Of a stretch of 64,000 bases of DNA, positions 7,763 to 22,735 are shown one piece after another. The number at the start of each line of letters is the position of its first letter. Within the stretch, counting starts at the first letter, position 1. The notes beneath the pieces are model-generated. The model saw nothing but the letters and a program-made list of their open reading frames with translations, was not told the DNA's origin and ran no database searches. The translations under genes and the position numbers were made by a program. Source of the stretch: an uncultured bacterium (lineage in GTDB: Bacteria; Gemmatimonadota; Gemmatimonadetes; Gemmatimonadales; GWC2-71-9); contig CBFGRM010000001.1 of assembly GCA_965651205.1 (NCBI GenBank), forward strand, positions 5,621 to 69,620, read 5' to 3'.

Positions 7763-9198
7763 ACCCTGAGTTCCCCGGCCGCCGCGCTGCCTGCCAACGG
7801 GCGCGCAGCCGACAGCAGTGGATCCAGATACTCGGCAATGAACTCCGCGACCTGTTCGGGTGCGCGTCCCACGTAGCGAACCGGGTCCAGCTCGGCCCGG
7901 AGCCGACCCTGATCGACCGACGCGAAGGCCGGGTCGCCTGCCAGGCGCTCCAGCAAGTCGTTGCTGGCGCCCTCCGACACCCGGCGAGCCACGGCCATCG
8001 AGTGCTGCCGGATGACCTCGTGCAGCGACTGGCGATCACCGCCGGCCTGCACCGCCAGCATCAGCCATCGCTCGGTTGCCATAAAGGGCATTTGCTCCGC
8101 CACCTTCCGGGCGATAACTGCCGGGCGCACCTCCAGGCCCTTGGCGATATTGGCGGCCAGCAACAGGATTGCATCGACAGTCAGGAATGCCTCCGGCAGC
8201 GTGAGCCGACGGTTGGCCGAATCATCGAGCGTGCGTTCCAGCCACTGGGCGGCTGCGGTGTGGGCAGTGTTCTGCTGCAGCGAGATCAGGTGGCGTGCCA
8301 GTGCGTTGATCCGCTCCGAGCGCATCGGGTTGCGCTTGTAGGCCATCGCGCTCGAGCCGATCTGTTCCGACTCGAACGGCTCCAGCAACTCGCCCTCGTG
8401 CTGCAGCAGGCGAAGATCGTTGGCAAACTTGGCCGCGCTCTGTGCGATTCCGCTCAACACGTCGAGCACCTGGGCGTCTGCCTTGCGGGGATATGTCTGT
8501 CCGGTGACCGCGAACACCGCGGGATGCCCGAGCCGCTCGGCGACCCGCTGCTCCAGTCGGCGCACCTTGTCGTGATCGCCGGCGAACAGCTCGAGGAACG
8601 ACGCCTGGGTGCCGGTGGTGCCCTTGCAGCCTCGCAACCGCCAGTTGTCCAGCAGGTGAATCATCGACTCGATGTCGAGCGAAAAGTCCTGTGCCCATAG
8701 CGTGGCCCGCTTGCCCACCGTGGTGAGCTGTGCCGGCTGAAAGTGCGTGTAGGCGAGGCAGGGCAGGGCGGCGTGGGCCTCTGCCAGGTCGCGAAGCGCA
8801 TCGGCCACGGTCAGCAGCCGGCCGAGAGTCATCGTGAGGGCGTCGCGCAGGATCAGCCCGTCGGCGTTGTCGGTGACGAATGCACTTGTGGCACCCAGGT
8901 GCAGCCACGGTCGGGCGGCCGGTGCCTGTTCGCCGAAGGCGTGCACGTGTGCCATCACGTCGTGACGTAGCCGCTTCTCGTGTTCAGCGGCGCGCGCCAG
9001 GTCGGCATCGTCCAGGTGCTGCCGGATTTGGGAGATCGCCTCGTCGGGGATCGCGATGCCCAGTTCGCGCTCGGACTCTGCCAGCGCAAGCCAGACACGG
9101 CGCCACTGACCAATGCGATGCGGCTCGCTCCAGAGCTGCAGCATCGCCTGCGAGGCGTAGCGGCCGGAGAGCGGGGACTGCCAGCGTGGCTCGGTCAT
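7759..9198 (-). CDS. purB: adenylosuccinate lyase
   Basis: SPL..RYAS, RHDVMAHVH, HLGATS, GSSAMAYKRNPM signature. Confidence 0.97.
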   Translation of the reverse strand: MTEPRWQSPLSGRYASQAMLQLWSEPHRIGQWRRVWLALAESERELGIAIPDEAISQIRQHLDDADLARAAEHEKRLRHDVMAHVHAFGEQAPAARPWLHLGATSAFVTDNADGLILRDALTMTLGRLLTVADALRDLAEAHAALPCLAYTHFQPAQLTTVGKRATLWAQDFSLDIESMIHLLDNWRLRGCKGTTGTQASFLELFAGDHDKVRRLEQRVAERLGHPAVFAVTGQTYPRKADAQVLDVLSGIAQSAAKFANDLRLLQHEGELLEPFESEQIGSSAMAYKRNPMRSERINALARHLISLQQNTAHTAAAQWLERTLDDSANRRLTLPEAFLTVDAILLLAANIAKGLEVRPAVIARKVAEQMPFMATERWLMLAVQAGGDRQSLHEVIRQHSMAVARRVSEGASNDLLERLAGDPAFASVDQGRLRAELDPVRYVGRAPEQVAEFIAEYLDPLLSAARPLAGSAAAGELRV

Positions 9199-10619
9199 CA
9201 GTTCGTGAGCATCAGGTAGGAGAACTGGCCGTTGCGTTCATACCAGAGCCGGAATCGTTCGCCGGGACCGACCTGGTCCAGGGCGGCCGCGAAGTCCTTG
9301 GCCGAGCGGATCGCCGCCTGCACCTCGCGGCGACCCGACACGAAGTCGAGCCTTACGATCACGTCCCCATCGCGCAACCCGGTCAGCCTGCTCGTCTCGG
9401 GGGGAACTTCGATCAGTGCGGCACCACTCTCGGACCTGATGCCGAGTTCGGCACGGACGGCGGGAGTCACGGTGACGAGATCGAGGCCCCGAAGCCGGAT
9501 TCGTTCGGCGGTGACGGTTGGCAGGTCCACCGGCGAGATGCGGCGCTCGAGGTCGCGTCCCTGCCGGCGCAGGCGCACTTCGACCACGTCACCCACGTGA
9601 AGGTCCAGCAGCACCGCCTCCCAATCGAGATAGTTGCGGAGGCGCTTTCCGTTGGCTTCAAGCAGCACGTCGCCGGTGGTTATTCCGGCCGCCGCCGCCG
9701 GACCGTCGGGCACCACCTGCACCACCGGCACGCCGCCGGCACTCTTCCAGTCGCCCATCCGGTCGGCACCGGCAACATCGAGTCCTACCCACGCGCGTCG
9801 CACCGCGCCGTTGCGGATCAGCTCGCTGGCGACCCGCATCGCACGCTCGATCGGAATTGCGAAGCCGACACCAACCGACTCGCCGGTGTTGGAGAAGATC
9901 GAACTCGACACCCCGATCACCTCGCCGAGCGCGTTGACCAGCGGTCCACCCGAGTTGCCGGGATTGATCGCGGCGTCGGTCTGGATCATATCGTAGTAGC
10001 GGCCGGCCTGGCCGCCGCTGGGGAGGATGTTGCGGCCGGTGGCAGAGATCACGCCGGCGGTGACGGTCGGCTCGGAGTTGCCGAGCAGGAATGAGTACGG
10101 ATTGCCAAGTGCGATTGCCCATTCGCCGATCAGCAGGTTGGACGAGGAACCGATCGCGGCCACTGGCAGGCCATCGCGTTCGATCTTGACCACTGCGATG
10201 TCGGTGAGCGGATCCTCGCCCAGCACTCGGCCCTCGGCGTCGGAGCCGTCGGCAAGCGTGATTGTCAACTGTTCACTGCCGGCGACCACGTGCTGGTTGG
10301 TGAGGATGATGCCGTCCTCGCGGATCACGAAACCGGTACCGAACGATTGCGCCGTCTGCTCGCGCGGGCCGCCGAAGAAGAACGCGTCGAATGCAGAGGG
10401 CTGCACGCGCTGGCGCGTGATGGCCCGCACCGAAACAACAGCAGGGGCAACCCTTGCCGTGGCATCGACGATCGCGGTGCGTCGAGAGGCATCTATTGCC
10501 GCGCTCCGGGTGGACGCGCTTGTCGGCGGGAATGTGGGTTGCTGTGCCCGCACCGGTTCATCGGATACGCACGCTCCGATCAGGAGCGCGAGGACGGCGA
10601 CACGCGGCACCCGGCTCAC
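9198..10619 (-). CDS. degP: HtrA/DegP-family serine protease with PDZ domains
   Basis: Signal/lipoprotein-like N-terminus, GTGFVI, TNQHVV, TDIAV, DAAINPGNSGGPL, PDZ domains; start taken as the GTG overlapping the truA stop. Confidence 0.9.
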   Translation of the reverse strand: MSRVPRVAVLALLIGACVSDEPVRAQQPTFPPTSASTRSAAIDASRRTAIVDATARVAPAVVSVRAITRQRVQPSAFDAFFFGGPREQTAQSFGTGFVIREDGIILTNQHVVAGSEQLTITLADGSDAEGRVLGEDPLTDIAVVKIERDGLPVAAIGSSSNLLIGEWAIALGNPYSFLLGNSEPTVTAGVISATGRNILPSGGQAGRYYDMIQTDAAINPGNSGGPLVNALGEVIGVSSSIFSNTGESVGVGFAIPIERAMRVASELIRNGAVRRAWVGLDVAGADRMGDWKSAGGVPVVQVVPDGPAAAAGITTGDVLLEANGKRLRNYLDWEAVLLDLHVGDVVEVRLRRQGRDLERRISPVDLPTVTAERIRLRGLDLVTVTPAVRAELGIRSESGAALIEVPPETSRLTGLRDGDVIVRLDFVSGRREVQAAIRSAKDFAAALDQVGPGERFRLWYERNGQFSYLMLTN

Positions 10620-11395
10620 CAGGCCACCTCGGGACCGAGCCAGATATCCTCGGGGTACCACGCCTGAATGAAGCTCAGCCCCCGAGCGGGGGCGGGCGCT
10701 GCGGTTTCACGATTGTGTTCAAGCGCAAGCAAGTGACGCATCGATTCCTCCTGTCGATAACCCAGGCCGATCTCGACCATCGTGCCAACGAGGAAGCGCA
10801 CCATATGGTGGAGGAAGCGGTCGGCTGCGATCACCAACCGCAACAGGTGCTGTCCCTCCGGTCGCCAGGCCGATTCGCTGATCCGGCAGCGATAGTGTGG
10901 CTTGGGCTCACGCAGCACGGCAAAGGCGCGAAAGTCGTGTTCACCGGAAATGACGCTTGCAGCCCGGTCGAGCGCACCGAGGTCGAGGGGTTTGGCCAGT
11001 GGCCAGCAGGTCCGTGCCGTAAACGGCGAGCGCGCGGCTGCAGTGATGCCGATGTCGTAGTGATAACGCCGTCCCAGGGCGTGCCGACGCGCGTTGGTGC
11101 CGGGCCGAACCTCACGGATCGCGGCGACCGCGATGTCGGCTGGCAGCAGGGCATTGGCGGCGCGCAACAGATCGGCAGACTCCCATCGTGGCGGCATTTC
11201 GACGGTAACGGGCATCGCGAGGGCGTGGACACCAGCATCGGTTCGGCCGGCTGCCACCGCCTTGGTCGGCAACCCCGCGAGCCGCGACATCACCGCCTCG
11301 ACTTCGCCCTGGACCGAGCGCCCCGATGCCTGGCGCTGCCAGCCGCAGAACTCCGTCCCGTCGAACTGCAGTTTGAGGAGAAATGCGCGGCCCAT
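10616..11395 (-). CDS. truA: tRNA pseudouridine(38-40) synthase
   Basis: FDGTEFCGWQRQ, AGRTDAGVHA, GEHDFRAF, FLHHMVR..VG, APARGL. Confidence 0.97.
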   Translation of the reverse strand: MGRAFLLKLQFDGTEFCGWQRQASGRSVQGEVEAVMSRLAGLPTKAVAAGRTDAGVHALAMPVTVEMPPRWESADLLRAANALLPADIAVAAIREVRPGTNARRHALGRRYHYDIGITAAARSPFTARTCWPLAKPLDLGALDRAASVISGEHDFRAFAVLREPKPHYRCRISESAWRPEGQHLLRLVIAADRFLHHMVRFLVGTMVEIGLGYRQEESMRHLLALEHNRETAAPAPARGLSFIQAWYPEDIWLGPEVAW

Positions 11396-11495: not shown

Positions 11496-12545
11496 ATGCA
11501 CTCCACTGACCCCGCCCTCCGCTCCGCGCTCGAGCACCTCGCCAGCGGCACCCCGCTCGGCGAGGATCTGGCCCATCGCGCCTTCCGCTCGATAATGGCC
11601 GGTCGCGCCACCGAGGCCCAACTCGGCGCAATCCTGCTGGCGCTGCGCGCCCGCGGCGAGACCGTCGACGAACTGGTCGGTGCCGTCCGCGCGCTGCGCG
11701 AGGCGATGCAGCCGGTGGACCTGGGCAATCCCGATCAATTGGTGGACACCTGCGGCACCGGTGGCGGTGCGGTCCGCACCCTCAACATCAGCACCGCCGC
11801 GGCGCTGGTGACCGCCGGCGCCGGCGTACGGGTCGCCAAGCACGGCAACCGCTCCTTCACGTCGCGTTCGGGCTCGGCCGACGTGCTGGAGGCGTTGGGT
11901 GTCGGGGTGGAGCTCTCAGGTGGGTCAGCCGCGCACCTGATCGACGAGGCCGGCCTGGTGTTCCTGTTCGCCCCTTTGCATCACCCGGCGATGCGGCACG
12001 CATCCGGGGTTCGGCGCGAACTCGCGGTGCCCACCGTGATGAACCTGATCGGGCCGCTGGCCAACCCTGCCAACGTGCTCCGACAGGTGGTGGGTGTGGC
12101 CGAGGCCCGCCACGGCGCGTTGATGGCAGGTGCGCTCCAGCGGCTGGGGTCGGTGCACTCGATGGTGGTACACGCAGCGCTCGGACTCGACGAGATTGCC
12201 TCGCTCGGCGAGACCACGGTGTGGGAGGTGCAGGGTGGCAATGTGCGTGAGTGGCGGCTCGATCCGGCCAGGTTCGGCCTTGCCACCCCGAATCTTGCCG
12301 GCATCGAGGGCGGAGATCCGGCCGACAACGCCGCGGCAATCGAAAGGCTGCTGGAGACTCCGGACGAAGTGCCCGAGGCGCTGCGCGCCGCCGTACTCCT
12401 CAACAGCGCCGCGGCCATCACGGTCTCCGGGATGGCAGGGGACCTTGCAGCGGGCGTGGTGGCCGCCCGGCGCTCATTGTCCAGCGGGGCGGCTCTGGAT
12501 CGCCTGAACCGCCTGCGGCGGCTCATCCCGCTCAGAACTTCCTGA
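11496..12545 (+). CDS. trpD: anthranilate phosphoribosyltransferase
   Basis: DTCGTGG, NISTAAA, KHGNRS.TSRSGSAD.LEALG, GLDE. Confidence 0.98.
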   Translation: MHSTDPALRSALEHLASGTPLGEDLAHRAFRSIMAGRATEAQLGAILLALRARGETVDELVGAVRALREAMQPVDLGNPDQLVDTCGTGGGAVRTLNISTAAALVTAGAGVRVAKHGNRSFTSRSGSADVLEALGVGVELSGGSAAHLIDEAGLVFLFAPLHHPAMRHASGVRRELAVPTVMNLIGPLANPANVLRQVVGVAEARHGALMAGALQRLGSVHSMVVHAALGLDEIASLGETTVWEVQGGNVREWRLDPARFGLATPNLAGIEGGDPADNAAAIERLLETPDEVPEALRAAVLLNSAAAITVSGMAGDLAAGVVAARRSLSSGAALDRLNRLRRLIPLRTS

Positions 12546-13140
12546 TCACCCCGACGACCACACCCTGGATGAGCACGTCGCTCTCCTGGAAGCGGAGCGG
12601 ACGCATAGTGGGGTTGGAGGGCTGGAGCCGGATCCAGCCGCCCGGTTCGCGATAGAACCGCTTGACCGTGGCTTCACTGCCATTGACCAGGGCGATAACC
12701 ATCTCGCCGTTGTCGGCGGTCTCGCGACCGTTGACCACAACGAGGTCGCCATCGCTGATCTGCTCGTCGATCATCGATTCGCCTCGAACCTTGAGCGCGT
12801 AGTTGGGGCCCCGGCGGGGCAGCATCTCGTCGGGAACCGATAGCACCTCGCCGGCCATTACCGATTCTATCGGCATCCCGGCGGCCACCGTGCCGAGCAA
12901 CGGGATTTCGGTGGCACCGACGCGGCCTCGAGGCGGCAGCACCTCGATCGACCGCGATTCGTTGTAGGACCGGCGGATGTAACCCTTCCGCTCGAGGTTG
13001 GTGAGATGTTCGTGTACCGTCGCCAGCGACTGGTAGCCGAACTGTTCCGCGATCTCCTCGAGCGAGGGAGCGTAGCCCTGACTGTCGATGGCGCTGGTGA
13101 GGTAGTCGAGGATGTTGCGTTGCTTGCGTGTAAGTGACAC
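12532..13140 (-). CDS. lexA: SOS repressor LexA
   Basis: LTRKQ..IL HTH, SLATVHEHL..LERKGYI, AAG cleavage site, GESM catalytic Ser, TVKR catalytic Lys; GGAGG RBS before GTG at 13140. Confidence 0.97.
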   Translation of the reverse strand: MSLTRKQRNILDYLTSAIDSQGYAPSLEEIAEQFGYQSLATVHEHLTNLERKGYIRRSYNESRSIEVLPPRGRVGATEIPLLGTVAAGMPIESVMAGEVLSVPDEMLPRRGPNYALKVRGESMIDEQISDGDLVVVNGRETADNGEMVIALVNGSEATVKRFYREPGGWIRLQPSNPTMRPLRFQESDVLIQGVVVGVIRKF

Positions 13141-13155
13141 AATGCCTCCGGACCA

Positions 13156-13203
13156 CGAAGAGAACCCGAACACCATATTCACATTACCCGAAGGTAACCC
13201 GAA
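13156..13203. promoter_or_regulatory. two direct-repeat operator candidates (CGAA-N7-CGAA), putative LexA boxes
   Basis: CGAA at 13156, 13167, 13189 and 13200 (spacing 11/22/11); one pair fills the -35/-10 spacer, the other lies just downstream of the predicted start site. Confidence 0.6.
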
Positions 13204-13209
13204 GCGCAA
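13181..13209 (-). promoter_or_regulatory. lexA promoter
   Basis: Minus strand TTGCGC-17 bp-TAATGT upstream of the lexA RBS. Confidence 0.65.
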
Positions 13210-13210
13210 G

Positions 13211-13999
13211 ATGGCTATCCTCGACCAGATTCTCGCCGACAGCCGCCGCCGGCTGCCAGACCTGCAGGTCCGGGCCGCCGCTCTGTACACCGCGGCGGGG
13301 AGTCGCGAGACCCCGCCACGCTTTCTGGCCGGTGTCCGCGACGCGGAACGGGTGGCCGTCATCGGCGAGGTCAAGCGGCGGAGCCCCAGTCTGGGGGCGA
13401 TCAATGAATCGCTCGACCCGGTAGGTCTGGCCAGTGCCTACGAGGCGGGTGGCGCCGCGGCGATCTCGGTGCTTACCGAGGAGGCGCGATTCGGCGGCTC
13501 GATTGCCGATCTGGATGCAATCTCCCGGGCGGTCCGGCTGCCGACGCTCCGCAAGGACTTCATCGTCAACGAGCTGCAGGTGGTCGAGGCGCGGGCTGCC
13601 GGTGCGTCGGCGGTGCTGCTGATCGTCCGGGCCCTCGATGACGACGAACTTGCGTCGATGCTGGAAGTAGCCCACTTCCACGGCCTGGCGGCCCTGGTGG
13701 AGGTGCACAATCGCGCCGAGCTGGACCGCGCCGTCCGGTCCGGGGCCAGCATCATCGGAGTCAATGCCCGCGACCTCGACACGCTGGAGATCGATATCCC
13801 GGCCTCCCTGGCTCTGATTGCAGAGATCCCCGGCGACCGGATCGCAGTGGCAGAGAGCGGAATGCACTCGGCCGCCGACGTCCGGCGAGCCGCTCAGGCC
13901 GGCGCCGACGCGGTGCTGGTGGGCAGCTCACTGGCTGCGGCGGCCGATCCACTGGCGCTGACCCGCGAACTCTCCGGAGTGAAGCGCAGTGGCCGTTGA
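13211..13999 (+). CDS. trpC: indole-3-glycerol phosphate synthase
   Basis: IGEVKRRSPS.G, ISVLTE..FGG, LRKDFI, GASAVLLI, EVH, GVNARDL, VAESG. Confidence 0.97.
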   Translation: MAILDQILADSRRRLPDLQVRAAALYTAAGSRETPPRFLAGVRDAERVAVIGEVKRRSPSLGAINESLDPVGLASAYEAGGAAAISVLTEEARFGGSIADLDAISRAVRLPTLRKDFIVNELQVVEARAAGASAVLLIVRALDDDELASMLEVAHFHGLAALVEVHNRAELDRAVRSGASIIGVNARDLDTLEIDIPASLALIAEIPGDRIAVAESGMHSAADVRRAAQAGADAVLVGSSLAAAADPLALTRELSGVKRSGR

Positions 14000-14648
14000 A
14001 GCCAAGATCTGCGGCGTGATGCGGCCCGAAGACGCCGCCTGGGCAGCCCAGCAGGGGGCGGCACGGATCGGGGTGGTGCTGGCCTGGGGTCGCAGGGTGG
14101 TGAGTCCCGAACTGGCCCGCGAGATCGCGATGGCGGCCGGCGGGGTACCGGTGATCGGGGTTCTGGGGCCGGGCGGTATCGACGCCTGGCTGGACCTGGC
14201 CGGACGGGCCGGTCTGGCAGGGGTGCAGTTACACGGGGGCAGCACCCCGGCACAGGCGGAGGCGCTTCGAGCGGCCGGTCTGGAGGTCTGGCGGGTGGCC
14301 ACGATCGGCCCCGACCAGACCCCCGAGGCAGCCACCGCAGCCGCGATGGCATCGGCCGATGCTGTGCTGGTGGAGCCCGCCACGACCGGCCGCGGTGGTG
14401 GCCTGGGGATCAGGCTCGACAGCAAGCTGGCTCGCCAGGCCCGCAAGAGTCTCCAGCGGCACCGGATGGTGCTGGCCGGAGGCCTCGACCCGGACAACGT
14501 CGCCGAGGCGATTCACCTCGTCGGACCCGACCTGGTGGATGTAAGTTCCGGCGTTGAGCTTTCGACTGGAATCAAGGACAAGGAGCGGGTGACCCGCTTC
14601 CTGGAGGCGGTACGTGACACTGGTTCCCCCACCCGTCGCGGTCACTGA
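13989..14648 (+). CDS. trpF: phosphoribosylanthranilate isomerase
   Basis: [26 protein letters not shown]...GIKD. Confidence 0.96.
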
Positions 14649-15816
14649 CGGCCGATTCGGTCCCTACGGGGGCCGCTACGTGCCCGAGACGCTGGTGCCT
14701 GCGCTGGAGGAGCTGGCCGGACTCTATCAGGAGGTCCGGAAGGATCCGTCGTTCTGGGCAGAGTATCACGCACTGCTCGTCGAGGTGGTCGGGCGACCCT
14801 CGCCGATCACCGAGGCACCGCGCTGGAGTGAGCGCGTCGGTTGCAGGATCCTGCTCAAACGCGAAGATCTCAACCACACCGGCGCCCACAAGATCAACAA
14901 CACGATCGGCCAGGCGTTGCTCGCCCGGAGAATGGGCAAGAGTCGCATCATCGCCGAGACCGGTGCCGGACAGCACGGCGTGGCCACCGCCACGATCTGC
15001 GCTCGCTTCGGCCTGGAGTGTGTCGTGTATATGGGCGCCGAGGACGTCGCTCGCCAGTCCCTCAACGTGTTCCGGATGCAGTTGCTCGGTGCCACGGTGG
15101 TCCCGGTCGAATCGGGCACGCGCACTCTCAAGGACGCCACCAACGAGGCGCTGCGCGATTGGGTCACCAACGTGCCGACCACGCACTACATCATCGGGTC
15201 GGTGGTCGGTCCGGATCCGTACCCGCGAATGGTGCGTGACTTCCAGTCGGTGATTGGCGTCGAAGCGCGCAGGCAAGTGCTGGAGCGCACCGACCGCCTG
15301 CCGTCGGCGGTGGTGGCGTGCGTGGGCGGTGGCTCGAATGCAATCGGTATCTTCGCCGGCTTCCTCGAGGATGCTGCCGTCGATCTTGTCGGCGTCGAGG
15401 CTGCCGGTGAAGGGATCGACACCGGTGCTCATAGCGCCACCCTCACGATGGGCCGTCCCGGCGTGCTGCACGGCGCGCTCAGTTACCTGCTGCAGGATGC
15501 GGATGGACAGGTTGCACCGGCGCATTCCGTGTCGGCCGGGCTCGACTATCCGGGTGTCGGTCCCGAGCATTCGTGGTTGCGAGACAGCGGCAGGGTCGCC
15601 TACGCAGCGGTCGACGATGCAGCGGCACTTGCTGCCTTCCAGCAGTTTGCGCGGTTGGAGGGCATCCTGCCGGCGCTCGAGACCGCACACGCGATTGCGT
15701 GGATCGACTCCGAGCGAGGCCGGCGTGATCCAGACGACATCCTGCTGCTGTGCCTGAGCGGACGGGGTGACAAGGACGTGGCGCACGTGGCTCGCCTGCT
15801 CGAGGCCACCACGTGA
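14614..15816 (+). CDS. trpB: tryptophan synthase beta chain
   Basis: [26 protein letters not shown] (PLP Lys), [25 protein letters not shown]. Confidence 0.98.
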
Positions 15817-17501
15817 GTGCGCCCACGGGAGCGGCACCGGACGCCGTGGAGGCACGCGCGGTCGAGGAACTGGTGCGGTCGATCTCCAAGGCGCAGCGCG
15901 CCTTGCAGATGTACCTCCCGAACAACCCGGTCTACCATCGCACTCTCGCCCAGATGAGCGAGAGCTTCGCGCCGGTCTGGGCGATCACCGGCCGACTGGT
16001 GCTCGACATCGAGGAACAGGACATTCTCTGGGAGGGTGTCTCGGTGGCGCCCGGCAGCGACCGCGGCGACGGACTGGCCTGGCAACTTTACAAGGACGGA
16101 CTGCGGCGACTCACGCTGCTGCCGGGTGTCGAGAGCGAGGAAATCGTCCGTTTCCTCGAGGTCGTCAACCGGGCCCGCCTGCTGGCAACCGATGCCGGCG
16201 ACGACCTGCTGACACTGCTCTGGGAACAGGAATTCGTGCTGATCACCTACGCCTTCATAGAGGCACTGGGTGACGGGATCGAATTCCTGCAGGAGAGCCC
16301 GATCCGGGAGCAGCCCGCACCGCAACCCGGCGCTGCCAGGGACGAAGTCGCGGAGGCGGAGCGCGGTGGCCCCGAGGGCCTGGTGGAGATCGGCGACTCG
16401 GACTCCACGCCGTACTTCCTCGACGAGGCCGAAGTCCGCTTCATCCGCGCCGAGCTGGAGGACGAGTATCGTCGCGACATCCGGACCAGCGCGATCGACG
16501 CGCTGCTCGATGTGCTGGAGACGGTGCCGGATCCGGCGGTGCGTCGCGAGGTGGTTTCGCTGCTCGAGGACGTGCTGCCGAGTCAGTTGGCGGTGGGCGG
16601 ATTCGGGGCGGTGGCGCACATCCTCCGCGAACTTCGCGTGATCGTTGCCCGCCTGCCTGGACTGGATCAGGAGTTGCACGCTGCGGTGCTGTCGTTCGAG
16701 TCACGACTGAGCGAGCCTGCGATCCTCGAACAGCTCTTCCGTGTACTGGAGGATCGCGGTGTCGGTACACGCGACGAGGATCTCGGCGCGGTGCTCCGCG
16801 AACTGAAGCCGACCGCCCTGCCGATCCTGCTGGCACACGTGGGCACGCTTGCCGACAGCGGAGTGCGGCAGGTGCTGCTCAGCAGTGCCGAGGAACTGGC
16901 GAGGGCGCAGCCTTCGATGCTGTCGGGGTTGCTCGAGCAATCGACGCCGGCGGTGCTGCAGGCTACGCTCGAGCTGATCGGTCGGCTCAAGTTGCAGCCG
17001 ATGGTGCCCAAGGTGATCAGTCTCACGTCCTCGGAGGATCCCGACATCCGGCTCGCGGCGGTGCGCTCGCTGATCCTGCTGGCCACGCCCACCGCCATAG
17101 ATGCCGTCGAGCGCGCCCTGCTGGATGAGGATCGTGTGGTCCGCCAGGCGGCACTCGCCGCCTTGCTGGAGCGCGGCGGCAGTGGTGGCACCCGGCAGGC
17201 ACTAGAGCAACTGCTGTTCGGCAAGGACGATCGCAACATCGAGCGCAGCGAACGTCGAATGTTGTTCGAGGCCTATGCCCAGGTCGCAGGCGGCGACTCA
17301 CTGGCGAAGTTCCGCGACCTGCTCGAACCGCGCGGACTGTTCCGCAGGCAGGCCCCGCCGGAAATTCGTGCCTGCGCAATCTTCGGCCTGGCCCGACTCG
17401 GCTCATTCGAGGCACGACTGCTTGTCGATCGCTTCACCGGCGACAAGGAGCCGGTGGTGCGCTCGGCGGCGAACGGGGTGCTGCGGGAGTGGCAGGCGTG
17501 A
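15813..17501 (+). CDS. HEAT-repeat (alpha-solenoid) protein of unknown function
   Basis: 562 aa; acidic N-terminal domain, C-terminal HEAT-like units ([35 protein letters not shown]); start overlaps the trpB stop. Confidence 0.8.
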
Positions 17502-18946
17502 CAAGTCGACCGGAACCCTCGGACGACGCCCATATCCGGCAGTTGGGCAGGGCGCTGCTGGTGGCCACCTATGGTGCCGCGCGGGCGCTCAAGCTGTATC
17601 CGCTGGAGAACACCGCCGTACAGCGGGCACTCGACGAACTGGTGGGCTCCTCGGTGGCACTGCTGTCGCTGGAGGGCCAGGTCGAAATCCGGCTCTCGGG
17701 CGAGTTCATCTTCGTGAACCAGACCCGGCTCCGCCTAGGGCTCGACAACTTCGCGGCGTTCAGCGGGTTTGTCGGGATGCTGCGCGACAACGGCATCGGG
17801 GTGTTGCGAATCGACGACGGGGTGACCCGGCGCGAGTGGCAGGCGTTCCTGTCGGCGATTCAGGGGTTGTCGGCCGACCTGCTACCCGACGAGCGACTCG
17901 ACCAGTTGCGGAAGCGGCTGCAGCAGGGCGACGTGATCAGGATCGATGTCGACGCCGGGGGCGAGAGCGATCCGCGCGACAATGAAGGCGACGAGGCGCT
18001 CGAGCGGGCCAAGCGGACGTATGCCCACGGCGTGGCGGTGGCCCGCGACGTGGTTCAGGGCGTCCGGATGGGTCGCGCACCCAACACGCGCCGTCTCAAG
18101 CGCGCCGTGCAGTTGCTGGTCGACCAGGTGCTCGAGAACGAATTGTCGATCACCGGGCTGACCACGCTGCGTGACTACGACGAGTACACCTTCACGCACT
18201 CGGTCAACGTCTGCATCTTCGCAGTGGCACTGGGGCGTCGGTTGGGGCTGCAACGAATGCAGCTCTACGATCTCGGCCTGGCTGCGCTGCTGCACGACAT
18301 CGGCAAGGCGCGCATCGATCTGGGGATCCTCAACAAGGATGCCGCGCTGGACGACTCCGAATGGCGCAGGATGCAGGCCCATCCCTGGCTGGGCACCCTG
18401 ACACTGTTCCGGATGCGCGAGGGTGAAGACCTGCCATATCGCGCCATCCTGGCGGCTCACGAGCACCATATGAAGGTCGACCTGAGCGGTTACCCGCGCG
18501 CCCTCAGGCCGCGTCGACTGGCCTTCTTCTCGCGACTGGTGGCGGTGGCCGACGGCTACGACGCGGCCACCACCAGGCGTTCGTACCAGGCCGATCCGTG
18601 GCAGCCGGTACAGGTGCTGCGCGAGATGTGGCTCAACCCCGGTCGCGGTTACGACCCGGTGCTGGTCAAGGCGCTGATCAACCTGCTCGGCATATATCCT
18701 GTCGGCACGGCGGTGATACTCGACACATTCGAAGTCGCAATAGTCGCCGGGCCGGGTTCGGACTCCGAGCAACTGCACCGGCCACTGGTGCGGATCGCGA
18801 CTGATGCCCACGGTGCCAGGTACCAGGCACCAGGCGTGTTGTGCGACCTTGCGCACACCAATGCAGACGGCAGCTATCAACGCACCATCGTCAAGGTTAC
18901 TTCTCCGGATCGCTATGGCCTCGTTGTCGGTGACTACTTCGTCTGA
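17498..18946 (+). CDS. HD-GYP domain protein (probable cyclic di-GMP phosphodiesterase)
   Basis: YTFTHSVNV, LLHDIGK, HPWLG, EHHMKVDLSGYP, VADGYDAATTRRSY; GTG at 17498 overlaps the HEAT-gene stop. Confidence 0.88.
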   Translation: MTSRPEPSDDAHIRQLGRALLVATYGAARALKLYPLENTAVQRALDELVGSSVALLSLEGQVEIRLSGEFIFVNQTRLRLGLDNFAAFSGFVGMLRDNGIGVLRIDDGVTRREWQAFLSAIQGLSADLLPDERLDQLRKRLQQGDVIRIDVDAGGESDPRDNEGDEALERAKRTYAHGVAVARDVVQGVRMGRAPNTRRLKRAVQLLVDQVLENELSITGLTTLRDYDEYTFTHSVNVCIFAVALGRRLGLQRMQLYDLGLAALLHDIGKARIDLGILNKDAALDDSEWRRMQAHPWLGTLTLFRMREGEDLPYRAILAAHEHHMKVDLSGYPRALRPRRLAFFSRLVAVADGYDAATTRRSYQADPWQPVQVLREMWLNPGRGYDPVLVKALINLLGIYPVGTAVILDTFEVAIVAGPGSDSEQLHRPLVRIATDAHGARYQAPGVLCDLAHTNADGSYQRTIVKVTSPDRYGLVVGDYFV

Positions 18947-19721
18947 TTCGCGGCTCGCCCGCGCCTGGCAGCAGCTCCGGAGCGAGGGTCGCACGGCGCT
19001 GGTGCCGTTTCTCACTGCCGGACATCCCGATCGCGCCACGTCGCTCGAAGCGCTGCGTGCGGCGGAGATGCGCGCCGACATACTCGAGGTCGGCGTGCCG
19101 TTCAGTGATCCGCTGGCCGATGGCCCGACCATCCAGGCCGCCACCTTCCGCTCGCTCGAGCAGGGGATGACCCTGGCTGGTACGCTCGACCTGATTCGGG
19201 AGGCCGAACTCGATGTGCCGGTGGTGCTGTTCTCCTACCTCAACCCGGTGCTGCAATACGGGGTCGACGCGCTGTTGCGCGAAGCGGCGGAGATCGGCAT
19301 TGCCGGCCTGCTGCTGACCGACCTGCCAGCCGGGGCCGATCCTGTCATCGAAGACGCGGTGCGGGCATCGCCACTCGACCTGATCCGCCTGGTGGCGCCC
19401 ACTGCGAGTCCGGAACGGATTCGTCGCGCAGTGGCCGATGCGGAAGGATTCATCTACCTGGTGTCGCGACTCGGCGTGACCGGTGTGGCGCAACAACTTG
19501 CCGCGGGACTGGGCGACTCGGTGGCAGCGGTCCGTCGGGAAACCACCCTGCCGATCGCCATCGGCTTCGGGATCTCCACTCCGGAGCAGGCCGCGATGGT
19601 CGCCGGACTGGCCGACGGGGCGGTGGTGGGAAGCGCACTGGTGGCGGCCCTGGACCACGGTGGCGTGGCGGAGATGACCGAGCTTCTCGACGCACTGCGC
19701 ACCGCGATCGACCAGGCGTGA
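18915..19721 (+). CDS. trpA: tryptophan synthase alpha chain
   Basis: LEVGVPFSDPLADGPTIQ, FSYLNP, LVAPT, YLVSRLGVTG, IGFGIST; start uncertain (18915 or 18930). Confidence 0.97.
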   Translation: MASLSVTTSSDSRLARAWQQLRSEGRTALVPFLTAGHPDRATSLEALRAAEMRADILEVGVPFSDPLADGPTIQAATFRSLEQGMTLAGTLDLIREAELDVPVVLFSYLNPVLQYGVDALLREAAEIGIAGLLLTDLPAGADPVIEDAVRASPLDLIRLVAPTASPERIRRAVADAEGFIYLVSRLGVTGVAQQLAAGLGDSVAAVRRETTLPIAIGFGISTPEQAAMVAGLADGAVVGSALVAALDHGGVAEMTELLDALRTAIDQA

Positions 19722-22174: not shown

Positions 22175-22735
22175 ATGTCGCAACCGGCAGATCCGACGGC
22201 CCAGGATGGCTTGCCACCCTGGGCCGTCGTCACGTCGAAGCGCGCCGATCACGTGTGCCGGGTGGTGGCGCTGCTGGAAGAATGGGCTCGGGTCGGCGGC
22301 GTGCGGAAGCTGGTTCGCGATCGCTGGGTACGGGCCGGTTGGCTCCACGATGCGCTCCGCGATGCAGACGAGGCCACGCTGCGTGAATTGCTGCCGGGTG
22401 TCGACGATGCGATGCCGTTTCTCCACGGTCAGGCCGCGGCCGTGATGGCACTGCGCGAGGGTGAGAATGATGAGAGCGTGCTCGATGCGGTGCGCTGGCA
22501 CACGATGGGTTGCGCCGATTGGGATGACACCGGGCGGGCACTGTACGCCGCGGACTTTCTGGAGCCGGGCCGCAAGTTCCTGGTCGAGGAACGCGCCGCT
22601 CTCGCCAGCCGCTGGCCCGAGGATCCTGTCGGCACGCTGCGTGAAATTGTTCGCCTCCGCGAACAACACCAGGCCGACAAGGGCCGGATCAGCCATCCGA
22701 TAAGCGTCACCTTCCGTCTCGCGGTGCTGGGATGA
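22175..22735 (+). CDS. yqeK: YqeK-like HD hydrolase (Ap4A hydrolase family)
   Basis: R..H..RV, WLHDA, LHG.AAA, AVRWHT.G, LYAADFLEPGR. Confidence 0.8.
   Translation: MSQPADPTAQDGLPPWAVVTSKRADHVCRVVALLEEWARVGGVRKLVRDRWVRAGWLHDALRDADEATLRELLPGVDDAMPFLHGQAAAVMALREGENDESVLDAVRWHTMGCADWDDTGRALYAADFLEPGRKFLVEERAALASRWPEDPVGTLREIVRLREQHQADKGRISHPISVTFRLAVLG

Follow-up and report, generated by a model that had tools for sequence, protein, structure and literature searches.

We analysed a window of 64,000 nucleotides (nt) from an uncultured bacterium of the Gemmatimonadales (contig CBFGRM010000001.1, positions 5,621 to 69,620), in which two coupled genes lie between trpB and trpA. The first encodes a HEAT-repeat protein of 562 amino acids (aa), named here P0001, and the second an HD-GYP protein, named here P0002. 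Our analysis found that the N-terminal domains (N-domains) of the two proteins are homologous, being paralogous copies of a domain that no catalogued family covers, and that the two genes stand side by side in all 93 loci examined, in three phyla. Together these results suggest that the HEAT and HD-GYP proteins form a two-protein signalling unit, so far undescribed and without a tie to tryptophan synthesis. The model we favour, with confidence a little above even, is that the two genes are a self-standing, vertically inherited module in which the paralogous N-domains join the HEAT protein to the phosphodiesterase as its partner.

Of the two classes of cyclic di-GMP (c-di-GMP) phosphodiesterases, the HD-GYP proteins are the one that is less well understood, and Gemmatimonadota and Nitrospirota are abundant, little-studied phyla of soils and sediments. 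To our knowledge, the gating of HD-GYP enzymes and the roles of N-terminal heads other than REC and GAF are largely unknown. What is new here is that the head of a predicted HD-GYP phosphodiesterase is an uncatalogued domain and that the enzyme has a dedicated partner, and full-text literature searches returned no paper on a partnership between HEAT and HD-GYP proteins or on the shared domain. In this module, a conserved, co-translated partner starts with a paralogue of the domain that heads the enzyme. Pairing of the two domains, if it occurs, would be a new way to build a regulated phosphodiesterase, in a split sensor or scaffold arrangement, and would give a first functional handle on a domain that is present in ~2500 sequence clusters. 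The module would also open second-messenger signalling in Gemmatimonadota and Nitrospirota to study, as a first entry point.

A domain common to the HEAT and HD-GYP proteins

The initial annotation of the window had aligned the first ~110 residues of the two proteins by eye, and the comparison of diverse profiles confirmed that these N-termini are homologous. By hhalign and by the AlphaFold2 (AF2) models, the shared domain comprises residues 15-120 of the HEAT protein (15855-16172, plus strand) and residues 18-126 of the HD-GYP protein (17540-17866, plus strand), where it carries the motif RALKLYPLENTAVQRAL ... NGIGVLRIDDGVTRREWQAFL. A pairwise BLASTP of P0001 against P0002 was not significant, the alignment of one N-terminus to the other having an E-value of 67. 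An hhalign comparison of profiles made from 31 close orthologues each (effective number of sequences, Neff, ~2) placed the alignment exactly from N-terminus to N-terminus and was weak, with 9% probability and an E-value of 0.0037. We then drew the profiles from diverse sources (80 GTDB loci, five metagenomic loci and 32 representatives at the 50%-identity level), and the comparison of 103 HEAT with 72 HD-GYP N-domain sequences reached 96.8% probability, with an E-value of 2.1e-10 and a score of 63.8 over 103 columns. Sixty column shuffles of the HD-GYP N-domain profile scored 13.3 ± 2.5 (maximum 19.2) and the reversed profile 10.4, which puts the real score ~20 standard deviations over the column-shuffled controls. 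Full-length profiles gave 93.8% probability (E 1.7e-7) and again laid residues 15-120 of the HEAT protein on residues 18-126 of the HD-GYP protein.

The same relation was recovered when hidden Markov models (HMMs) of the two N-domains were run against all six-frame open reading frames (ORFs) of at least 60 aa in the window. The sole cross-match of the HEAT model was the HD-GYP ORF (19.5 bits, E 2e-5), and the sole cross-match of the HD-GYP model was the HEAT ORF (15.2 bits, E 6e-4). In the AF2 models, both N-domains run alpha1, alpha2, beta, beta, (beta), alpha3, beta, alpha4; the elements match one to one along the hhalign alignment, and most of both domains has a predicted local distance difference test (pLDDT) value >90. 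In the HEAT copy (pLDDT >90) the helices span residues 11-33, 39-58, 88-94 and 110-123 and the strands residues 62-66, 70-73, 76-80 and 97-102; in the HD-GYP copy the helices span residues 11-36, 42-62, 85-100 and 114-125 and the strands residues 64-70, 73-76 and 105-109. The shared domain is thus modelled as an alpha/beta domain of ~105 residues, in which two long helices are followed by a beta-beta-(beta)-alpha-beta-alpha arrangement.

The pattern that had been read by eye, A-x-RAL-x2-Y-x3-N-x4-R-x-L ... G-x3-L-x4-GV-x3-E-x3-FL, was exact and falls on the columns that are conserved in the one family and in the other. The columns common to the two are R-A-L-x2-Y-x3-N at the turn between alpha1 and alpha2, and G ... 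G-V-x3-E-x3-F-L around beta4-alpha4. The paired conserved residues, given as HEAT/HD-GYP, are R29/R32, Y34/Y37, N38/N41, G96/G104, G105/G113, E110/E118, F114/F122 and L115/L123. One could still suppose that this likeness arose by chance or from composition, that the adjacency of the genes is accidental synteny and that the two proteins have no functional relation, and the non-significant BLASTP result and the 9% probability of the close-orthologue profiles would agree with that. We regard this explanation as close to negligible given the distance of the diverse-profile score from the shuffled controls, HMM cross-matches that are reciprocal and unique in the window, secondary structures that match in register, and a pairing that is held in three phyla despite differing surroundings.

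The initial annotation could assign no named family to the domain, and no Pfam or NCBIfam model covers either copy. Pfam gave no match to the shared domain at E <= 1 in 54 HD-GYP or 50 HEAT members, and in the family consensus sequences the domain was unmatched even at E <= 10. Sequence searches of the PDB with both family profiles found no solved structure of the N-domain, the matches being to the HD-GYP and HEAT parts only. Foldseek searches of the PDB with the full-length models were dominated by the catalytic domain of P0002 and the solenoid of P0001, not by the N-domain.

A recent survey of HD-GYP proteins in Leptospira (2026) treats unassigned N-terminal heads only as possible relatives of DUF3391 (PMC12943098). 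We considered the shared domain as a divergent DUF3391 and rejected this at the level of detectable sequence similarity: hhalign of either copy against a small alignment of nine DUF3391 sequences, from plasmid-borne DUF3391-HD-GYP genes, stayed at background (score 12-16, probability 0.2-0.7%). The DUF3391 model (PF11871) matches P0002 at 16.3 bits against a cut-off of 27.8, over profile positions 93-134 only, and the same weak match occurs in 41 of the 54 members. Across the family it reaches 16-18 bits (17.9 for the consensus) over profile positions 63-135, which correspond to HD-GYP residues ~131-202 and lie outside the shared domain. The remainder of the protein aligned by hhalign with a DUF3391-HD-GYP protein from a Citrobacter plasmid (QNM21398.1, DUF3391 at 125 bits) with an E-value of 4.6e-39 over P0002 residues 186-479. 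Judged by these alignments, P0002 outside its head is clearly of the DUF3391-HD-GYP type, the C-terminal beta domain included. Since the head is not DUF3391 and the rest is of that type, the subfamily would have swapped the DUF3391 head for the domain that also heads its HEAT neighbour.

The predicted phosphodiesterase and the HEAT-repeat protein

In P0002, the only Pfam or NCBIfam matches above cut-off are HD_5 (PF13487; 56.1 bits against 27.2) and HD (42.1 bits against 22), both within residues 228-391, and the first ~200 residues are unmatched. The HD_5 and HD models are matched by all 54 family members. The catalytic domain, defined by Pfam, invariant residues and Foldseek, lies at 18170-18661 on the plus strand. 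It is preceded by a long helix (residues 160-201; 17966-18091, plus strand) that weakly resembles the C-terminal helix of DUF3391, and it is followed by a beta-rich C-terminal domain of the DUF3391-HD-GYP kind, with five strands in the AF2 model (residues 401-485; 18689-18943, plus strand). The mean pLDDT of the P0002 model is 83.7, and its Foldseek matches in the PDB were 3tm8 (E 4e-7), 4mcw (4e-7), 9rbz (6e-6, template-modelling score 0.69 on the target) and 4r8z (2e-5).

Across the 54 sequences, H237, H269-D270, K273 (the Lys of HDxGK), H298, H326-H327, D331, G334-Y335-P336 and D355 are invariant, and the metal-binding residues of P0002 align with the motifs of PmGH and V-cGAP3. The consensus of the extended HD-GYP signature is HHExxDGxGYP (PMC3188283). 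In P0002 the corresponding loop reads HHMKVDLSGYP, in which the His-His pair (H326-H327), the Asp (D331) and the GYP (from G334) are kept. The replacements of Glu by Met and of Gly by Leu are found in at least 90% of the family members, so that the family form is HHMKxDLxGYP. From these features P0002 is predicted to be a cyclic-dinucleotide phosphodiesterase of the HD-GYP family (PF13487, COG2206) with an apparently complete set of metal-binding residues, and it is probably active as an enzyme.

The HEAT-repeat gene (15813-17501, plus strand) encodes a protein in which HEAT repeats are the only Pfam or NCBIfam matches, from about residue 300 on, with HEAT_2 (PF13646) at 62.2 bits against a cut-off of 27.7 and HEAT (PF02985) at 32.4 bits against 23.5. 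As in P0002, the first ~200 residues are unmatched. The AF2 model (mean pLDDT 88.4) has an all-helical alpha-solenoid over residues ~205-559, and a Foldseek search of the PDB with this model returned HEAT/ARM repeat proteins only (alphaRep, ARM, HEAT). The N-domain is followed by an extension specific to the HEAT family (residues 121-162; 16173-16298, plus strand), which is modelled as a helix (residues 132-139) and a beta-hairpin (strands 144-152 and 156-161). This extension holds a near-invariant DDLLTLLWE motif, and its columns D131, L132, T134 and W137 are invariant. The N-domain and the extension tie as the best-conserved part of the HEAT protein, with a column identity of 0.52-0.53 against 0.42 for the repeats.

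The match of P0001 to the NblB/phycobilin-lyase model (NF045915) was 20.1 bits against a cut-off of 300, reflecting generic repeat similarity only, and membership of the PBS-lyase, TIGR02270 or DVU0298 families was likewise rejected, all scores being far under cut-off. Among the database representatives, a 767-aa protein (P0272) is a gene-calling artefact, a frameshift having fused TrpB to the HEAT protein, and it shows once more that trpB and the HEAT gene are adjacent.

Conserved pairing of the genes and the proposed partnership

At 93 of 93 loci the HEAT gene is followed directly, in the same orientation, by the HD-GYP gene. Measured to the codon aligned with HD-GYP residue 12, the distance past the HEAT stop never exceeds 65 nt, and where genes were called, in L001, L004, L086, L088, L090, L091, L092 and L093, they overlap by 4-11 nt. 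The pair was found in Gemmatimonadota, in Nitrospirota (Thermodesulfovibrionales, Nitrospiraceae and Ca. Sulfobium) and in Nitrospinota, and four divergent loci (L088-L091) have no assigned taxonomy. The Gemmatimonadota loci include the best 80 of 579 GTDB matches, all 80 of these carrying the pair. Related loci were found with a narrower alignment, the broad one being too divergent for this purpose. At the level of sequence clusters (50% identity), the HEAT N-domain profile matched 2530 clusters at E <= 1e-3 and 1050 at E <= 1e-10, the proteins being mostly 550-610 aa long among the 150 matches listed. The initial annotation had made its two-protein module depend on significant profile similarity between the N-termini and on co-occurrence of the genes across genomes, as well as on an interaction; as to the first two, the similarity proved significant, and the two genes occur together in all 93 loci of the three phyla.

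In the window, the HD-GYP gene runs from 17489 or 17498 to 18946 on the plus strand. The GTG at 17498 (482 aa) is the more likely start over the GTG at 17489 (485 aa) because the database entry P0123 has 482 aa and because this start overlaps the HEAT stop; with it, the HEAT stop and the HD-GYP start share GTGA at 17498-17501. Strict adjacency with overlapping or abutting start and stop codons in three phyla implies, as far as gene layout can indicate, that the HEAT and HD-GYP proteins would be synthesised in a coupled and roughly stoichiometric manner.

We propose that the HEAT and HD-GYP N-domains pair as a pseudo-symmetric heterodimer, by analogy with the identical sensor domains of homodimeric HD-GYP enzymes. 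Through this pairing the HEAT solenoid would become a subunit of the phosphodiesterase that regulates or targets it and has no catalytic role, and it could either gate the enzyme or link it to a third partner. Here the module is predicted to be transcribed as part of the trpCFB-...-trpA-folK-panBCD string. On balance we lean towards such a contact between the two heads, and towards the role it would give to the solenoid.

Several observations weigh against this proposal. The AF2 models of the single chains have a predicted template-modelling score (pTM) of ~0.6, and the signature loop of the enzyme deviates from the consensus, with HHM for HHE and DL for DG. A Nitrospinota HEAT protein (P0268; locus L086, 5001-7091) has tandem N-domains, at residues 8-146 and 152-292, and both are of the HEAT type, so this duplication is not the fusion of a HEAT-type to an HD-type copy that would have linked the two families in one chain, and P0268 was ruled out as a Rosetta-stone fusion. 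Its HD-GYP neighbour retains an HD-type copy of its own, and the tandem copies do count for the modularity of the domain. Finally, the positions that both families keep are occupied by polar residues (Arg, Tyr, Asn, Glu) located in loops, so that a ligand pocket common to the two proteins fits them as well as an interface does.

This last point leads to an alternative in which the N-domain binds a small molecule or nucleotide and each protein senses the same signal alone, without mutual binding through the domain, the phosphodiesterase being one output and the HEAT protein a second output or an adaptor. The positions of the conserved polar residues, with R, Y and N at the alpha1-alpha2 turn and G and E at the beta4-alpha4 turn, would suit it, and the N-terminal domains of HD-GYP proteins are usually sensory (REC, GAF, PAS), as in the PDB matches 4mcw and 9rc0. 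However, adjacency with overlapping codons in 93 of 93 loci from three phyla is more typical of the subunits of one complex, and a HEAT solenoid by itself produces no output, which makes two separate sensors unlikely, though a serious competitor. A partnership through the N-domains remains the model we prefer. In its widest form, which we put forward as tentative and somewhat doubtful, the shared domain would be a new fold family for heterotypic pairing, and the pairs of the different phyla would be obligate two-subunit cyclic-dinucleotide phosphodiesterases, with a catalytic HD-GYP subunit and a regulatory or targeting HEAT subunit; the HHMKxDLxGYP loop of the HD-GYP subunit could set the enzyme apart from classical HD-GYP enzymes in its substrate or its control.

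Comparison with known systems places P0002 closest to the DUF3391-HD-GYP type, of which we take PA4108 and VCA0681 to be examples. The best Foldseek match of P0002 is Bd1817 (PDB 3TM8), followed by PmGH, DvhD and PA4781. Bd1817 and P0002 share a layout of N-terminal head, long linker helix, HD-GYP domain and C-terminal beta-rich domain, and the linker helix of P0002 weakly matches the tail of PF11871. P0002 differs in that its head is not DUF3391 and recurs as a paralogous copy on the HEAT protein, the product of a separate gene, in an added two-helix hairpin, and in the HHMKxDLxGYP loop. The sensor-coupled HD-GYP enzymes PmGH (GAF, 4MCW), PA4781 (REC, 4R8Z), DvhD (PAS, 9RBZ/9RC0) and V-cGAP3 (5Z7C) have catalytic domains homologous to that of P0002 (E 9e-27 to 8e-12 by sequence, 4e-7 to 7e-4 by fold) and have in common with it the principle of an N-terminal regulatory domain. 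The head of P0002, in contrast, belongs to no named family and is duplicated onto a non-catalytic polypeptide that is always co-encoded; a literature search found no such partner subunit described for PmGH, PA4781, DvhD or V-cGAP3.

The PP2A-type holoenzymes are similar in principle only, as their metal-dependent phosphoesterase also has a HEAT solenoid for a non-catalytic partner. The A subunit of PP2A was among the many generic HEAT matches of P0001 in Foldseek, and with no homology beyond the generic repeat the likeness is one of analogy, not of family membership. The proposed docking of the HEAT and HD-GYP proteins would also differ, using the shared globular domain and not the solenoid surface.

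The trp setting and neighbouring genes

The window has a G+C content of ~67%, and its nearest relatives are metagenome-assembled genomes of Gemmatimonadales. The string of genes reads trpD, lexA (minus strand), trpC, trpF, trpB, HEAT gene, HD-GYP gene, trpA, folK, panB, panC and panD. The initial annotation was correct that the two coupled genes split trpB from trpA: equivalog models identify the flanks as true trpB (14614-15816, plus strand; TIGR00263, 602.9 bits against a cut-off of 392) and trpA (18915-19721, plus strand; TIGR00262, 231.6 bits against 102), and the junctions overlap. The trpB stop and the HEAT start share GTGA at 15813-16. The most likely trpA start is the ATG at 18915, which gives a protein of 268 aa like its orthologues, and the overlap of the HD-GYP gene with trpA is then 32 nt, identical to that in the orthologous locus L001. 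No terminator-like site was found on the plus strand between 12400 and 23000. Because start and stop codons overlap and a terminator is absent, the layout makes co-expression of the pair with trpCFB and trpA almost certain in this genome.

This embedding raised the possibility that the Gemmatimonadota pair senses or regulates the status of the Trp pathway (indole, Trp or serine) or docks on TrpA or TrpB. In favour of such a role, the pair sits between trpB and trpA with overlapping codons in 52 of the 87 Gemmatimonadota loci, including the deep branches L089 and L088; 50 of these have TrpB upstream, and L062 and L065, which are cut at the HEAT gene, have TrpA downstream. The other 35 loci, however, hold the pair beside lexA with no trp gene within 6 kb. 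The pairs of Nitrospirota and Nitrospinota lack trp neighbours altogether, and the presence of folK and panBCD in the same string makes it a mixed housekeeping string. A role in the Trp pathway is therefore improbable in our judgement. The link to Trp biosynthesis drawn in the initial annotation thus stands for the place of the pair in a trp string and for its almost certain co-expression here, and fails as a general feature in view of the trp-less loci and the unrelated contexts in the other phyla.

Nor is the pair a local insertion, as the description 'inserted between trpB and trpA' would suggest, since the arrangement is old and widespread in Gemmatimonadota. In a tree of the HD-GYP proteins (a quick maximum-likelihood search, midpoint-rooted), trp-flanked loci occupy the deepest branches on the Gemmatimonadota side (L089, L088) and several clades, and the trp-less loci form one clade of 25 members and scattered rows, forcing at least three changes. 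This distribution fits an ancient trp-embedded arrangement from which the trp genes would later have been lost or relocated. The trp-less backbone equals that of the window minus its trp genes: purC-purB-htrA-truA-lexA(-), then the HEAT and HD-GYP genes, then folK, with a gene for a GAF and methyl-accepting chemotaxis protein (MCP) product before folK in some cases. In the Nitrospirota loci the pair follows tatA-tatC and faces a GAF-GGDEF gene, and in Nitrospinota it lies between carAB and ubiD/ubiA. The trp-less loci and these unrelated contexts mark the gene pair itself as the unit. Read from gene order, the trp setting is a lineage-specific conserved synteny without a functional tie to tryptophan, and it serves as a caution, since a tight operon embedding here reflects old synteny and not common function.

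The neighbour that does persist in Gemmatimonadota is lexA, which is kept in every locus with sufficient upstream sequence: it lies upstream on the minus strand in 35 of 35 trp-less loci and in the 39 of 39 trp-type loci where enough sequence was available, and in the 35 trp-less loci it directly adjoins the HEAT gene, divergent and just upstream. In the window, lexA (12532-13155, minus strand; TIGR00498, 202.6 bits) is divergent from trpC-trpF-trpB-HEAT-HD-GYP-trpA. Upstream of it, trpD (plus strand) ends at 12545, where its 3' end shares 14 nt (12532-12545) with that of lexA. With this arrangement the trp genes are in three pieces, split by lexA and by the HEAT/HD-GYP pair. The trpF gene occupies 13989-14648. 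The identities of trpC, trpD, trpF, folK and lexA rest on NCBIfam equivalog models above their cut-offs, and panB, panC and panD are named after their orthologues in syntenic loci, by the Pfam families assigned there.

A CCGAA repeat array lies by the lexA start, in trp-type and trp-less loci alike; in the window it is at 13156-13204, in the gap between lexA and trpC. It has the form ...CCGAA-N6/7-CCCGAA ... ACCCGAA-N5/6-CCCGAA-gNgCAAG, and it is found ~100-190 nt 5' of the HEAT start in L027, L029, L030, L033, L036, L038, L042, L044, L045, L053, L054, L055, L059 and L069. The array looks like a conserved promoter/operator region of LexA. The trp-less loci also have a TAnnTTTG(CA) box ~60-90 nt 5' of the HEAT start, e.g., GCTATTTTGCA and TAGCTTTTTGCA, among them L030, L033, L036, L038, L044, L053, L055 and others. 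We take this box to resemble the -7 promoter element of Bacteroidota. No box of this type was found near the HEAT gene of the window, where the only two matches are both far off.

Further signalling genes were observed around the pair. A gene for a soluble chemoreceptor-like protein with GAF and MCP-signal domains lies 3' of the module and 5' of folK in L004 (9254-11335), where it follows trpA, and in L030 (9106-11151), where it follows the HD-GYP gene. It is absent from the window; in other Gemmatimonadota loci folK is preceded by a gap of corresponding length, which points to the insertion being present there too. After panD, the window holds an ORF of 186 aa with an HD-like motif, WLHDALRD (22175-22735, plus strand); the orthologous position is annotated as PF01966 HD in L002 and L004, and the ORF would be a second, small gene of the HD family in the string. 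In the Nitrospirota loci L092 and L093, which have tatA-tatC and an ORF of 92 aa on the upstream side, a GAF-GGDEF gene of the diguanylate cyclase type lies convergent just 3' of the pair (9145-10545 and 9305-10702, respectively). Its position hints that, in these Nitrospirota, the GAF-GGDEF and HD-GYP proteins may form a local pair for the synthesis and degradation of c-di-GMP.

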